Positions 32,144 through 43,565 are shown, numbered from the stretch's first letter. The stretch: DNA of 44,728 nucleotides from Escherichia coli (GCF_003334315.1 NZ_QOWR01000039.1), one strand, 5' to 3'. Notes: generated by a model from the letters alone, not told the origin. Numbers and translations: made by a program.

Positions 32144-32338
32144 TTACAGCAACTGGTGAGGGCTGGCATAAGTTGCCGGTGTTTCGGTAGAGTCACGGTC
32201 ATCCACCACGCGGAGTGAATAACCTTTTTCAGCGGCCTTATTAATCAGTTCAGTGATATTAACACCATCAATGTCAACGGCAATGTGCCCCATATCCAGC
32301 GCCTGTACGTTAACGCTGTCGGCTTCCAGTGTCATCAT
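32144..32338 (-). CDS. yeeW: CP4-44-type island small protein YeeW-like
   Basis: 64-aa ORF immediately downstream of cbtA, start overlapping the cbtA stop. Confidence 0.55.
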   Translation of the reverse strand: MMTLEADSVNVQALDMGHIAVDIDGVNITELINKAAEKGYSLRVVDDRDSTETPATYASPHQLL

Positions 32339-32708
32339 TTCGCCTCCGGATACTTACCCAGGGTAATGTTATTTACCGTTCTGTAATTGTCGCGGGTCAT
32401 CAGGCCGGTCGCCCTGCGAGCCCGGAGGATATCGATGCTGTTTATTAACTGAGAGCGGGTACAGGCGCTGAATCCCGGCTGGTCGGTAGCACCAGCGCGT
32501 ATTTTTCCACGAGAAAGTTCACCGCATCACACAGTGAAATGCCTGCCTCAATATGCTGCTCAATCACACGTTCATCGGCAAAAGGTGTGTCATTCAGTGT
32601 GAGGCCATAGTGCTGGTCCAGCAGTCGGGACAGCAGTATCTGCCAGATTTCAACAGGAGACGGGCGAGAACTGGTCGCCTGCCCGGGTAATACAGGTAAT
32701 GTTTTCAT
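32335..32708 (-). pseudogene. cbtA: CbtA-family toxin (cytoskeleton-binding toxin), disrupted by a 1-bp frameshift near 32486-32492
   Basis: N-terminal 71 aa match CbtA; after YALV the frame is lost, while the -1 frame continues [50 protein letters not shown] to the expected C-terminus. Confidence 0.75.
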
Positions 32709-32796
32709 ACTGAAGATTTTCCTGATATGCAGATATAAAAATGGAAAAGTGGCGTGGTGAAAACACCAGGCCGTAGCAGAAGGCTATTCTGGAGAG

Positions 32797-33165
32797 TTAA
32801 TTTTTCATTTCGGGCGTCGGATAAACAGCCAGATAAACGTAACCACAACTGCTGAGGGTATCGGCTTTGCAGGTCAGCCCTTTTGCATACAGCGTGACGG
32901 TATGCTGATGGCGGGGATTCAGTTCACCGCTGGTGAGCATGAGTTCCAGTTGTTTCATCAGCAGCGGAAAGGCCTGGTCCAGGTGGTACGCATCTGCATC
33001 GCTGAACAGGCCTCTGATACCGGCGCGGTCGGCAAGGTAATGCAACCGGTTACCCTCCTGCACCAGACGTGCCCCGAAACAGGGCGTCACGGTGCAGGGC
33101 AGCCCCCACCAGGGGCGGTCGTGATTGTCGTCGGGAAGTGTTGTCCCGGGGAGTGTGTCTGACAC
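32797..33165 (-). CDS. cbeA: CbeA-family antitoxin (cytoskeleton bundling-enhancing factor)
   Basis: 122 aa, MSDTLPGTTLPDDNHDRPWWGLPCTVTPCFGARLVQEG... Confidence 0.88.
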   Translation of the reverse strand: MSDTLPGTTLPDDNHDRPWWGLPCTVTPCFGARLVQEGNRLHYLADRAGIRGLFSDADAYHLDQAFPLLMKQLELMLTSGELNPRHQHTVTLYAKGLTCKADTLSSCGYVYLAVYPTPEMKN

Positions 33166-33238
33166 GATAAAATCCTTACAGAAAATCGGCTAAGAATGGT
33201 CCGGTAGTGGCGATAATTCTGCTCATCAGAATTCCCAC

Positions 33239-33460
33239 TCAGTTCAGGGTGACGCTCATCAGCCGGACATACGGACCAAAACTGTCCTTACGGCGTTCAG
33301 CAAACACGGCCAGCACACCGGGAATATCCTGCACTTCACGACCGGTATACGCTTCAGCACTGCCGTGCCAGCGGTATTTACCGGTACAGAACGGAAAAAG
33401 ACGGGATGTCGGATGTTGTTGGTGAATACGCATGGCTTCACCACGGGTGATAATTTTCAT
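33239..33460 (-). CDS. yeeT: DUF987-like small protein YeeT
   Basis: 73 aa, conserved position between yeeS and cbeA. Confidence 0.8.
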   Translation of the reverse strand: MKIITRGEAMRIHQQHPTSRLFPFCTGKYRWHGSAEAYTGREVQDIPGVLAVFAERRKDSFGPYVRLMSVTLN

Positions 33461-33522
33461 AATGGGATACCTCTGAAGACAGAAGATAAAAGTGAAAACA
33501 GGTGTGATGTGGTTGTGAAGGG

Positions 33523-41228: not shown

Positions 41229-41283
41229 TATTTAACCTTCCTAAGACGCATTTTCATGACAACCACGGAGGAGGTCATTTACT

Positions 41284-41330
41284 ACAAACGATCGTTTATA
41301 ACGATCGATATGATAGTAACGATCGATGTA
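41284..41330 (-). promoter_or_regulatory. cluster of three GATC (Dam) sites in repeated AACGATCG motifs upstream of the dynamin-like operon
   Basis: aaacgatcgttt (12-bp palindrome), taacgatcgata, taacgatcgatg; GATC at ~41290, 41303, 41321; 60-100 bp upstream of the start codon at 41228. Confidence 0.5.
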
Positions 41331-41445
41331 TTCTATTAACTTGAGAAACACAACGCAAGGGGACAACCCGGGTATGGCTGCGTTTGCATAGTGTTTTCAT
41401 GGAGTTAAAAATCTGTAACAACAGCCTGGTACATCACCACCGGGT

Positions 41446-42357
41446 TCAGAAGAAAATCCAGTTCCATACCGCGCGGGCAACAGAGACCACCGAGTCACGG
41501 ACGGCGCGCAGAACCGTGCGTGCAACAGAGGCAATGCAGACGCTCTCCGCCGTGTCAAATATCCGGTCCACCGCACCGGTAAACTGTTCACGGGCCTGAG
41601 ACCGGACAGACTCCGTGCGCAGCTCGTCCTGCAGGCGGGTCATCAGGGGACTGGCGGCATGGTCGGGAAGTGCTGTCATGAGCGCACTGACCAGCGTATC
41701 CAGTTCCCAGCCGGTGCGGGCCGATACGGCAACAACCCGATGTACGGGCCGGAACAGACGGAATACCGCCTCCGTTTTTTCGCGAATGTTCTGTGCCTGT
41801 GCGGGAGAAGGCTGAATACCGGCCATATCCCATTCATGGCAGGGCTCCGTTTTATCGGCCTGCATCACCACAAACAGTACCCGCTGATGTCCCCGGTGCA
41901 GGATGTGTCGCCAGAAATACTCATCCACAGACAGGGCACGGTCATCGGCTTTAATCAGCCACAGTACCAGGTCCAGTTCGAGCAGAATGTCACGGTACAG
42001 GGCTTCATACTCTGCATCCCTGTCCCGGCTCTCGCCCACCCCGGGCAGGTCAGTGATAACCATGCTGTGACCATGGCCATTCAGACGGAAGCGCTGCACT
42101 TCCCGGGGGCCGGCGTGAACATCACTGACCGGGGTGACCTCCCCCTGAAACAGCGCATTACAGAGTGAGGATTTACCGGCCCCGCTTTTACCCATAATGC
42201 CAGGCACGGGTTCGTGACTGGTGAGTTTGCGCAGATGTTCCAGGATGTGACGGGAAAGTGAGTAAGGCAGGGAGGAGAGCGGTTTTTCAATTGCCTCAAT
42301 GGCATCAGACGGATTCATACATGTATTCCCGGTGAAAAAAGACAAAACCCCGCGCAC
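41446..42357 (-). CDS. yeeP: YeeP/YkfA/YfjP-family GTPase (island-associated)
   Basis: Walker A GIMGKSGAGKSSLCNALF, DxxG (ITDLPGVG), conserved position in CP4-type islands; start probably internal ATG at 42318. Confidence 0.8.
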   Translation of the reverse strand: MRGVLSFFTGNTCMNPSDAIEAIEKPLSSLPYSLSRHILEHLRKLTSHEPVPGIMGKSGAGKSSLCNALFQGEVTPVSDVHAGPREVQRFRLNGHGHSMVITDLPGVGESRDRDAEYEALYRDILLELDLVLWLIKADDRALSVDEYFWRHILHRGHQRVLFVVMQADKTEPCHEWDMAGIQPSPAQAQNIREKTEAVFRLFRPVHRVVAVSARTGWELDTLVSALMTALPDHAASPLMTRLQDELRTESVRSQAREQFTGAVDRIFDTAESVCIASVARTVLRAVRDSVVSVARAVWNWIFF

Positions 42358-42401
42358 CGGAAAGGTGGCGGGGGATTCACGGAAATAATATCTGTCTGAA
42401 A

Positions 42402-43565
42402 TTATCTGGAATCGATTTGGCTGTTCTGCCTGGTTGCCACCAAATCATGGTACGCCTGCTCAATCATTTCATTCAGCAGTTTTTTTGGGAGGACACCACG
42501 ACTTCGGGCAATACTTTCAAGCTGTTTGTGGATTTTTCCGGACAGTTTCAGAGGGACGGAACCATCAGCACGTTCATCACGCCTTTTTTGTTGCTCCCGG
42601 GCACTTTTCAGCTCATCAAGAAGAATCGCTTTATGCTGAATCCTGGGGGCCTGGAAGGAGACCTGCGTAAACTTCGCTCTGTTCCGTCTGGGATTACTTT
42701 CCAGTAAAAACTGTACCTGTTGCTCATTCCAGCCCTCCCAGTTATCAAACGTGGCGCAGGCAAACCAGTATTTCTGCTCCGGGGTAAGGGGATTCAGCGG
42801 GGTTCCCACACACCGGACCTGCATGGCGTTCCATAACCAGTCACACTGTTCACTGTCCCTGCTGTCCACCCACGAAAAGGGGGAGGGGTAATCATTGTTT
42901 ATGCTGGCCCATTCAGAGAATACTGAGTTGATAATCGTCCTCGTAGCCTCTGGTCCGGATTTCAGCAGGTAACTGGAGCAGAACCATATAATTTCACGGT
43001 AGATTTTATCCGGATGCACGGTGCGCATCGGCTTTTCTCTGGGACCGGCAATCTTCGGTTGCGATGGAAACCCCGTGGCAAACCGCAGATGTTCCGGGGG
43101 CATTCCTGAACGTTTTTCAGGAATGGGTGTGAGTCCTGCGTTTCTGGTCTTTTCCGCTTGTCCGGTATTGTCTCCGGCCGGAGTGTTGTCGGGAGTATCT
43201 TCCGGAGGCGAGGTGTTTTCATTAGTTGGGGGAACAACAGCAGAACTGTCCATCTCCGGAATGGGTTGAGGGGCATAATCACTGTGGTAGCCAGGGGAAA
43301 GCGTTAAGTCCCGAAGGGTGACATCAGGTTCCGGGCAGTGAGTGCCACCGGGAGTGAACGGGAGTTGTTGCTTTTGGGAGAAAAATGTATTGTGAATGCG
43401 GGTATACAGCTGGAACAGAAAAAAATAAGATGCCCGTGGTTCTTTTTTTAACCACTGTGTATATTCCTCTATGGCACCGAGCTGTTGTTTGTGCCGTTTT
43501 ACAGCATCGATATACGGACAGCTGGTGCAGATATCATCCAGTTCCTTTCCCACAATACACCTCAC
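42402..43565 (-). CDS. hypothetical island protein with Pro/Thr/Asn-rich low-complexity linker
   Basis: 387-aa ORF, N-terminal Cys pair (CTSCPY), central low-complexity stretch, C-terminal Trp-rich domain. Confidence 0.5.
   Translation of the reverse strand: MRCIVGKELDDICTSCPYIDAVKRHKQQLGAIEEYTQWLKKEPRASYFFLFQLYTRIHNTFFSQKQQLPFTPGGTHCPEPDVTLRDLTLSPGYHSDYAPQPIPEMDSSAVVPPTNENTSPPEDTPDNTPAGDNTGQAEKTRNAGLTPIPEKRSGMPPEHLRFATGFPSQPKIAGPREKPMRTVHPDKIYREIIWFCSSYLLKSGPEATRTIINSVFSEWASINNDYPSPFSWVDSRDSEQCDWLWNAMQVRCVGTPLNPLTPEQKYWFACATFDNWEGWNEQQVQFLLESNPRRNRAKFTQVSFQAPRIQHKAILLDELKSAREQQKRRDERADGSVPLKLSGKIHKQLESIARSRGVLPKKLLNEMIEQAYHDLVATRQNSQIDSR

Follow-up and report, generated by a model that had tools for sequence, protein, structure and literature searches.

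The 44,728-nt stretch of Escherichia coli DNA analysed here (GCF_003334315.1 NZ_QOWR01000039.1; called the window throughout, at its full length) carries at 32144-43565 a minus-strand gene region that is probably the toxin-antitoxin end of a decayed CP4-type genomic island, situated between a pduV' remnant beside tmaR (also named yeeX) and cobU. Within this region a YeeP-family GTPase gene is followed by a spacer resembling the regulatory region of agn43, and directly behind it by an operon for a dynamin-like GTPase, an RdcB/YjcZ-family protein and a patatin-like phospholipase. The explanation that we judge probable as a whole has three parts: the island is decayed and fixed in place; its variation among strains arose through block recombination, an indel and insertion sequence (IS) elements; and the operon would be governed by the switch predicted from its spacer. 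Taken by itself, the island is a decayed and widespread element that has been catalogued before, and CP4-type islands are expected to be mosaic; the points of interest are rather the uncharacterised trio of genes and its placement behind an Ag43-type switch. The trio is present in 45% of complete E. coli genomes, and its conservation as a unit extends to Vibrio and Pseudomonas, in surroundings that resemble those of defence genes. About 36% of genomes have it directly behind the Ag43-type regulatory region, which predicts heterogeneous expression of a potentially membrane-damaging enzyme.

CP4-44 of E. coli K-12, GI-CFT073-cobU of CFT073 and the island of the window are one and the same insertion. 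K-12 is collinear with the window over 29001-33975 (99.3% identity; sbmC through yeeS) and again over 41443-41998, the 3' part of yeeP, while CFT073 carries the island at 96% identity and has it listed as GI-CFT073-cobU, c2482-c2528, with no tRNA (PMC6315130). The match to an empty-site strain, DSM 103263, stops at 31520, which places the island boundary at 31520|31521; in the empty-site alignment the same boundary lies at the corresponding K-12 position, and the flanks are likewise identical to those of CP4-44. The likeness to CP4-44 that had been noted from the sequence is thus borne out, both by the insertion and its flanks and by a backbone found across Enterobacterales. The start of the island, which had been placed at yeeX/yeeW, has to be moved to 31521, since yeeX/tmaR itself (30851-31246) is a plus-strand gene of the flank, beyond which the minus-strand island begins. 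Also outside the island is the yoeF-like pduV/eutP remnant (31347-31529, minus strand), a piece of the chromosomal flank whose annotation was carried over by offset from RefSeq ET490. In empty-site strains the pduV' remnant is joined straight to cobU. The island flanks in those strains overlap by 4 bp only (TCGG/CCGG; window 31517-31520 and, on the cobU side, L005 13831-13834), and the comparison revealed no longer flank repeat; the empty site may be either the ancestral state or the product of a microhomology-mediated deletion.

Mobile CP4-type islands have a P4-like tyrosine integrase beside a tRNA or tmRNA gene and att direct repeats at both ends, and none of these was found here. The island of GPEC548, a strain 100% identical to the window, measures about 32 kb, extends to a cbi' remnant beside cobU and contains remnants of IS66, IS100, ISL3, IS630 and IS4; neither an integrase nor a flanking tRNA was present in it or in the fetched parts of ET490 and CFT073. 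Intact islands end DUF5983-DUF957-DUF4942-tRNA. The corresponding end in the window (31521-32143) is eroded to a transposase fragment (about 31592-31729) and a DUF957 fragment (about 32018-32110), with no DUF4942 and no att repeat. Because the integrase and the boundary tRNA are lacking, the flanks overlap by only 4 bp and erosion has affected the DUF957/DUF4942 end, the island is a fixed degenerate remnant, no longer a mobile member of the CP4 type, and there are no integrase and att sites to be located beyond the window as the preliminary description had anticipated.

Genes were called from open reading frames (ORFs), from the RefSeq annotation of genomes 99-100% identical to the window (ET490, GPEC548) and from precomputed Pfam matches, and the three were concordant for 32144-43565, where the Pfam matches comprise PF01926, PF00350, PF13990, PF01734, PF06067, PF03230, PF04002, PF06174, PF06154, PF06755 and PF25638. 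Indeed, the minus-strand genes that had been named in advance (yeeW, cbtA, cbeA, yeeT, yeeS, an antirestriction gene, a YafZ-like gene and a YeeP-family GTPase gene) are all present, and the conserved CP4-type module of GTPase, DUF932, antirestriction, RadC, DUF987, CbeA, CbtA and DUF5983 genes is complete and in order on the minus strand. Starting from the eroded end, it consists of yeeW (32144-32338; the N-terminal part of a DUF5983 protein, 64 aa, supported by ORF call, RefSeq and Pfam), cbtA (32335-32708), the intact antitoxin gene cbeA or yeeU (32797-33165; ORF call, RefSeq, Pfam), yeeT (DUF987; 33239-33460; RefSeq, Pfam), yeeS of the RadC/JAB family (33523-33999; RefSeq, and 149 bits against NCBIfam TIGR00608, above cut-off), the antirestriction gene (PF03230; 34015-34494; RefSeq, Pfam), the YafZ/YfjQ-like DUF932 gene (34576-35397; RefSeq, Pfam) and, beyond the variable interval, a 290-aa GTPase of the YeeP/YkfA/YfjP family (41446-42318; RefSeq, NCBIfam, Pfam). 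The toxin gene cbtA is there as had been described, but as a pseudogene: a 1-nt deletion near 32488, seen by alignment with the CFT073 and K-12 genes and flagged by RefSeq in ET490 as well, leaves an 87-aa ORF (32445-32708). This truncated allele recurs in several other genomes, while cbeA remains intact. A terminator-like minus-strand hairpin of 13 pairs followed by a T run (35447-35476) lies where the variable interval ends downstream, slightly within the conserved backbone.

The backbone also includes a 383-aa ORF upstream of the GTPase gene (42402-43553, minus strand). It has no Pfam or NCBIfam match, and its homologues lie directly upstream of the GTPase gene in Serratia, Yersinia, Hafnia, Kluyvera and Photorhabdus (tblastn E values 1e-28 to 1e-36), so that it belongs to the backbone and not to the cargo. 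A second variable point is found between the GTPase gene and the 383-aa gene (window 42412-42434). Both dynamin-type islands of CFT073 carry a 6.2-kb insert with a TonB-dependent receptor and an ABC transporter there, and K-12 CP4-57 has rnlAB and abpAB at the corresponding point, just upstream of yfjP. The GTPase gene of CFT073 is itself shortened by an internal deletion of 430 bp.

One genome per species was scanned with a GTPase alignment and the loci were classed by tblastn. The conserved module was found in K-12 CP4-6 and CP4-57 and in 80 Enterobacterales loci, throughout the order, in three layouts: GTPase-DUF932-YfjR-[variable]-DUF905-antirestriction, GTPase-YfjR-[YafY/YkfB/IrmA]-DUF932, and the Escherichia layout of the window. 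The module, from the 383-aa gene through the GTPase, DUF932, antirestriction, RadC, DUF987, CbeA and CbtA genes to DUF5983, is common to many paralogous islands of E. coli and Enterobacterales, and its variable part is the interval after the GTPase, here occupied by the triple-GATC region, the operon directly behind it and two genes for small exported proteins. In K-12 CP4-6 and CP4-57 the DUF932 gene follows directly on the GTPase gene at a distance of 91 bp, and the variable genes lie between the DUF932 and antirestriction genes. Across Enterobacterales the GTPase and antirestriction genes are 1.0 to 8.3 kb apart; in the window the distance is 6.95 kb. The variable part is mostly made up of small exported or lipoprotein genes without a family name, Ag43 or Cah being occasional, and the dynamin trio was seen in E. 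albertii only in this one-genome-per-species sample. The variable interval is real, and its repertoire is narrow.

The three genes of the operon overlap by 4 nt at each junction and lie on the minus strand. The first (38832-41228) encodes a dynamin-like GTPase of 798 aa with the motifs G1 GTMKAGKST, DTPG and NKFD, a full-length paralogue of RdcA/CrfC (YjdA). It aligns with K-12 RdcA at 33% identity over 744 aa (E 9e-121) and scores 556 bits over residues 1-797 against NCBIfam NF007368, below the equivalog cut-off of 1146 bits; judged by these scores, it is a paralogue of RdcA and a protein distinct from it. Immediately downstream is the gene for a 301-aa member of the RdcB/YjcZ family (37930-38835; PF13990), 30% identical to K-12 RdcB (E 2e-37). 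The third gene (36863-37933) encodes a 356-aa patatin-like phospholipase (PF01734; GGGxxG, GASIG and DGG motifs), in whose translation the SGGGAVG oxyanion motif, the GASIG (GxSxG) serine and the DGG aspartate can be read. Its matches to the CapV and RssA models are weak and well under the cut-offs (CapV 18.6 bits against 200). In the set of 5,426 complete E. coli genomes surveyed, the operon occurs in 2446 (45%), CFT073 and O157:H7 included, in up to 5 places per genome; copies on plasmids are very rare. An IS3-family insertion (equivalent to window ~39655-39970) interrupts the yeeX-linked dynamin gene of O157:H7-type genomes, and the same genomes hold a second, intact copy behind cah in SpLE1. 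We found no functional study of the operon in the literature (searched by the locus tags ECs1397-9 and Z1212-4, by YjcZ with patatin and by dynamin with patatin in defence); one paper on O118 Shiga toxin-producing E. coli lists its genes within an island and nothing further.

In K-12, nucleotide-free RdcA together with RdcB activates DgcE by direct binding (PMC6510439). By analogy, the dynamin/RdcB-like pair of the window may control, or license, the phospholipase. A more specific possibility, which we hold only tentatively, is that the cargo serves to defend against phages, with the slot in effect a carrier of defence genes: the pair would sense infection or GTP depletion and activate membrane damage by the patatin in a phase-variable form of abortive infection. 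Patatin homologues with 48-63% identity were found in Pectobacterium, Vibrio vulnificus, Pseudomonas fluorescens, Plesiomonas and Enterobacter asburiae, and in all five of these distant contexts the dynamin and YjcZ genes precede the patatin gene in the same order. A WYL-domain gene stands immediately upstream in Vibrio and Enterobacter; BREX genes (BrxL, PglZ) or genes for Mrr-type/PD-(D/E)XK-type nucleases are nearby; the Pseudomonas operon has a BrxR gene, an integrase and a YeeP-like GTPase close by. These neighbourhoods are suggestive of a role in phage defence, and patatin effectors (CapV of CBASS) and dynamin pairs (Eleos) have known defence roles (PMC12480259). However, the distant contexts number only five, the operon has no match among the PADLOC models (LeoBC 19.8 bits without a significant stretch, phospholipase effector 20 bits, no LeoA), no paper on the trio was found, RdcA and RdcB of K-12 work in cyclic di-GMP signalling rather than in defence (PMC6510439), and many copies of the operon are disrupted by IS elements, as in O157:H7.

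Upstream of the operon, the GTPase and dynamin genes are separated by a spacer of 217 nt (41229-41445, minus strand) that resembles the regulatory regions of agn43 and cah. It contains three GATC sites at 41290-41324, with spacings of 14 and 9 nt and the conserved TTAATAGAATA upstream, and a promoter scan placed promoter-like hexamers at 41310-41339, overlapping the triple-GATC region. The spacer is identical to K-12 flu at 43/56 positions and to SpLE1 cah at 46/57, and it aligns with the agn43 region of CCU17 as well. The triple-GATC pattern occurs only once in the window, and no dynamin-type locus examined, among them the two CFT073 copies and that of E. albertii, has lost any of the three GATCs. 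IsrC has no Rfam match here, and the long agn43 leader is absent from the spacer. At agn43, OxyR bound at one site represses, and methylation of the GATCs abolishes OxyR binding (PMC2909390). An agn43-type switch has three GATCs in one OxyR-binding region just downstream of the promoter; the window holds this conserved sequence element with one spacing shorter by 1 nt. Transcription of the operon would thus start at an Ag43-type promoter, with Dam methylation and OxyR possibly turning it ON and OFF, and phase-variable expression of the dynamin operon is, judging from the spacer, plausible.

A triple-GATC element after the GTPase gene was also found in one locus each of Citrobacter braakii and Enterobacter wuhouensis, where it precedes small ORFs with signal-peptide or lipobox N-termini, and the switch may belong to the slot rather than to Ag43. 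A doubtful but far-reaching extension of this idea is that the slot downstream of the GTPase is a phase-variable expression site under an Ag43-type Dam/OxyR switch, which in about one third of E. coli genomes would drive the dynamin/RdcB-like/patatin operon instead of an adhesin, and that this operon would be a novel system for phage defence or membrane attack, its GTP-sensing dynamin pair licensing a phospholipase in part of the population.

The remainder of the variable interval is taken up by two minus-strand genes for small proteins, called secreted or exported here because signal-peptide-like sequences were read by eye at their N-termini. The 136-aa protein (35618-36028) starts with such a sequence, MKTFIKTLLVAVTILFSVFATA, and has weak homologues within the same interval of Salmonella diarizonae. 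The 227-aa ORF (36044-36727) contains two signal-peptide-like stretches; alignments with its homologues from other species begin no earlier than about residue 62, and an internal Met66 (start codon 36532) precedes the second stretch, so its N-terminal 65 residues may be a fused remnant or reflect a miscalled start. Neither protein is similar to IrmA by BLASTP, and PADLOC, NCBIfam and Pfam returned no match for the 136-aa, 227-aa or 383-aa proteins.

What occupies this interval differs from strain to strain. At the same site, the Ag43-type island of CUVET23-CCU17 has the order GTPase-Ag43-YeeR(838 aa)-IrmA-DUF905-DUF932, and its breakpoints relative to the window are 35550|35551 and 41442|41443, the first being common to the comparisons with L004 and L017. 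To survey the site we took 45 chromosomal rows systematically down the ranking of all genomes (query: window 29687-44651). Intact dynamin-type islands beside yeeA made up 15 of the 45, six of them CFT073-like with the TonB-receptor/ABC transporter insert; a further six were truncated derivatives, seven were Ag43-type islands (K-12 included), five had an empty or nearly empty site, one had unclear content, and in 11 the best match was an island elsewhere in the genome. The large cargo classes in this E. coli sample were two only, dynamin and Ag43, together with IS-decayed derivatives; H54 and H57, considered as third cargo types, are dynamin-type islands with IS903B and IS1A deletions. A single ancestral gene order without cargo variation, which would have refuted the preliminary description, is excluded by the finding of dynamin, Ag43 and empty sites. 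K-12 CP4-44 is itself a deletion derivative of the Ag43 type: it has flu and yeeR between yeeP and yeeS, its yeeR being the 5' part of the 838-aa gene, joined to yeeS, and it has lost IrmA, DUF905, DUF932 and the antirestriction gene.

The operon does indeed stand where other islands have Ag43, as had been proposed, but the two cargoes are not mutually exclusive. In serX islands, including SpLE1 of O157:H7 Sakai (ECs_1395-1401), they lie in tandem, in the order GTPase-cah-dynamin-RdcB-patatin-DUF932. Window positions 41281-42405 and 36778-41232 match this arrangement on either side of cah, and therefore the two arrangements differ by a 3.2-kb indel comprising the autotransporter leader and ORF. 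Across the survey set, the GTPase-dynamin junction of the window type was found in 1974 genomes (~36%) and the cah-dynamin junction in 635.

Comparison of dynamin-type and Ag43-type islands points to the origin of these differences. The outer parts of the two are 98.3-99.9% identical, with pseudogenes and IS scars in common, while their centres differ by replacement or divergence; identity is 95.9% in the GTPase and 89.8% in the AlpA region, and the divergent block continues beyond the GTPase as far as the AlpA region. Ten distinct contexts of the window's exact GTPase allele were read, and in all of them the dynamin operon came next; the Ag43-type allele was always followed by Ag43-YeeR-IrmA-DUF905 in the contexts read. 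A search for repeats, direct or inverted, found none at the borders of the slot. The backbone occurs in several copies (median 5-6 places per genome) and thus offers ample homology for exchange between islands. Outer identity with central divergence, the linkage of allele and cargo, the tandem with cah, the repeat-less borders and the multi-copy backbone together lead us to favour block recombination and deletion over a cassette hotspot. Blocks that include the GTPase allele would be replaced by homologous recombination among paralogous islands, the 3.2-kb indel would remove or add the autotransporter, and IS elements would cause deletions; a dedicated cassette-insertion mechanism would not be needed for the differences between strains.

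The preliminary description had instead regarded the GTPase-to-DUF932 interval as a hotspot devoted to insertion, which receives unrelated cassettes again and again, so that other strains should hold many other modules in it. Its premise of variable content is correct, since the site holds dynamin or Ag43 cargo or nothing, and there is more that would suit it: the breakpoints 35550|35551 and ~41442 recur across independent comparisons, the interval is empty in K-12 CP4-6 and CP4-57 and spans 1 to 8.3 kb with several unrelated small-gene families across Enterobacterales, and the second variable point upstream of the GTPase has received its own genes in CFT073 and CP4-57. Nevertheless we consider such a hotspot unlikely, as the borders lack direct or inverted repeats and no recombinase is nearby, GTPase alleles co-segregate with the cargo in a divergent block that reaches the AlpA region, the E. 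coli sample holds two large classes and their decay products only, and Cah can coexist with the dynamin operon in tandem.

That the dynamin-type and Ag43-type islands were inserted independently at the cobU target, instead of being one island with exchanged content, is highly improbable and was rejected: the central ~14 kb does differ and the GTPase and AlpA regions are just 90-96% identical, but the pduV'-side boundary is identical in both types, the cobU-side boundary (L005 13831) was mapped in K-12 (Ag43-type) as well as in the dynamin-type GPEC548 and 2017-19-1CC, and the distal 7 kb compared (zinc-ribbon genes, an ISL3 pseudogene with an internal stop, a ggt remnant, phosphotriesterase, DMT and the start of a glutamine amidotransferase gene) is collinear and 99.2-99.9% identical, with pseudogenes and IS scars in common.

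Several observations weigh against the favoured account of a fixed island that varies by block recombination, indel and IS activity and carries an Ag43-type switch. The spacing from GATC-I to GATC-II is 14 nt as against 15 in agn43 and cah, and the loss of 1 nt could weaken or abolish OxyR binding. Among variants of the spacer there are 0 substitutions within the 12 GATC bases and about 13 outside them (P ~0.08), which is not statistically compelling. The two sharp breakpoints seen in independent comparisons, with 35550 in both L004 and L017, would also suit a preferred point of recombination or insertion; the polarity of the 3.2-kb autotransporter indel may be either loss or gain; and the frequencies of Ag43-type and empty alleles at the site come from the 45-row sample, not from a full census.

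The rest of the window is E. coli chromosome, with an O-antigen-like cluster, gnd, ugd, wzz, the his operon, yeeZ-yeeY-plaP, sbcB, dacD, sbmC, yeeA and tmaR/yeeX. Positions 1-9000 are low in GC (31-43%), with plus-strand ORFs in series upstream of gnd (9011-10417), consistent with an O-antigen gene cluster. Rfam matched the His operon leader (20133-20256, minus strand, 132 bits) and the small RNA (sRNA) STnc240 (22995-23069, plus strand, 68 bits), neither of them related to the island; these were its sole matches in the window, and no sRNA was detected by Rfam inside the island. The island side of the window (32000-44728) matches thousands of E. coli records, the best at 99-100% identity; at least 80% of it was found in one place in 1670/5426 complete genomes, and at least 80% of 29687-44651 in 1754/5426 (~32%). 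The last 77 bases (44652-44728) diverge from the 100%-identical GPEC548, MB15 and ET490, whose matches end at 44651, next to an IS21-family remnant; this tail is probably an IS junction specific to the source strain.

Set beside known systems, the locus is closest to CP4-44 of K-12 and GI-CFT073-cobU, with which it shares the site, the boundaries (pduV'/yoeF-tmaR on one side, cobU on the other), a yeeS-yeeT-cbeA-cbtA-yeeW end that is 99% identical and a YeeP-family GTPase. It differs from CP4-44 in that K-12 has flu and yeeR in place of the dynamin operon and has deleted DUF932 and the antirestriction gene, whereas the cbtA of the window is frameshifted; GI-CFT073-cobU differs by the 430-bp GTPase deletion and by the 6.2-kb TonB-receptor/ABC insert upstream of the GTPase. 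The SpLE1/OI-43/48-type serX islands of O157:H7 (ECs_1395-ECs_1409) have the same module order, the same GTPase and DUF932 flanks and an operon 94.5% identical, but they place Cah between the switch and the dynamin gene, lack the two small exported-protein genes and retain an intact DUF957-DUF4942 end at tRNA serX. Eleos (LeoA/LeoBC) and CapV of CBASS resemble the operon in employing a dynamin-superfamily GTPase or a patatin phospholipase, on mobile islands, in phage defence; the operon differs from Eleos in its single dynamin-like gene, with LeoBC at 19.8 bits and no LeoA match, and from CBASS in having no cyclase, with CapV at 18.6 bits against a cut-off of 200. The agn43 (flu) region has three GATCs and the upstream TTAATAGAATA at the same place just downstream of the GTPase gene, yet the window, with its putative switch, lacks the isrC-region leader and the autotransporter ORF, has 14 instead of 15 nt between the first two GATCs and places cytoplasmic enzymes rather than an adhesin downstream. 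Finally, RdcA/RdcB (YjdA/YjcZ; CrfC) are likewise encoded by overlapping genes in an operon and share the P-loop and PNRNRPMT motif, the full-length architecture and a PF13990 partner. Identities to that pair, whose action on DgcE is known in K-12 only, are just 33% and 30%, the NCBIfam score falls short of the equivalog cut-off, and the window-type operon, island-borne and often multi-copy, adds a translationally coupled patatin.

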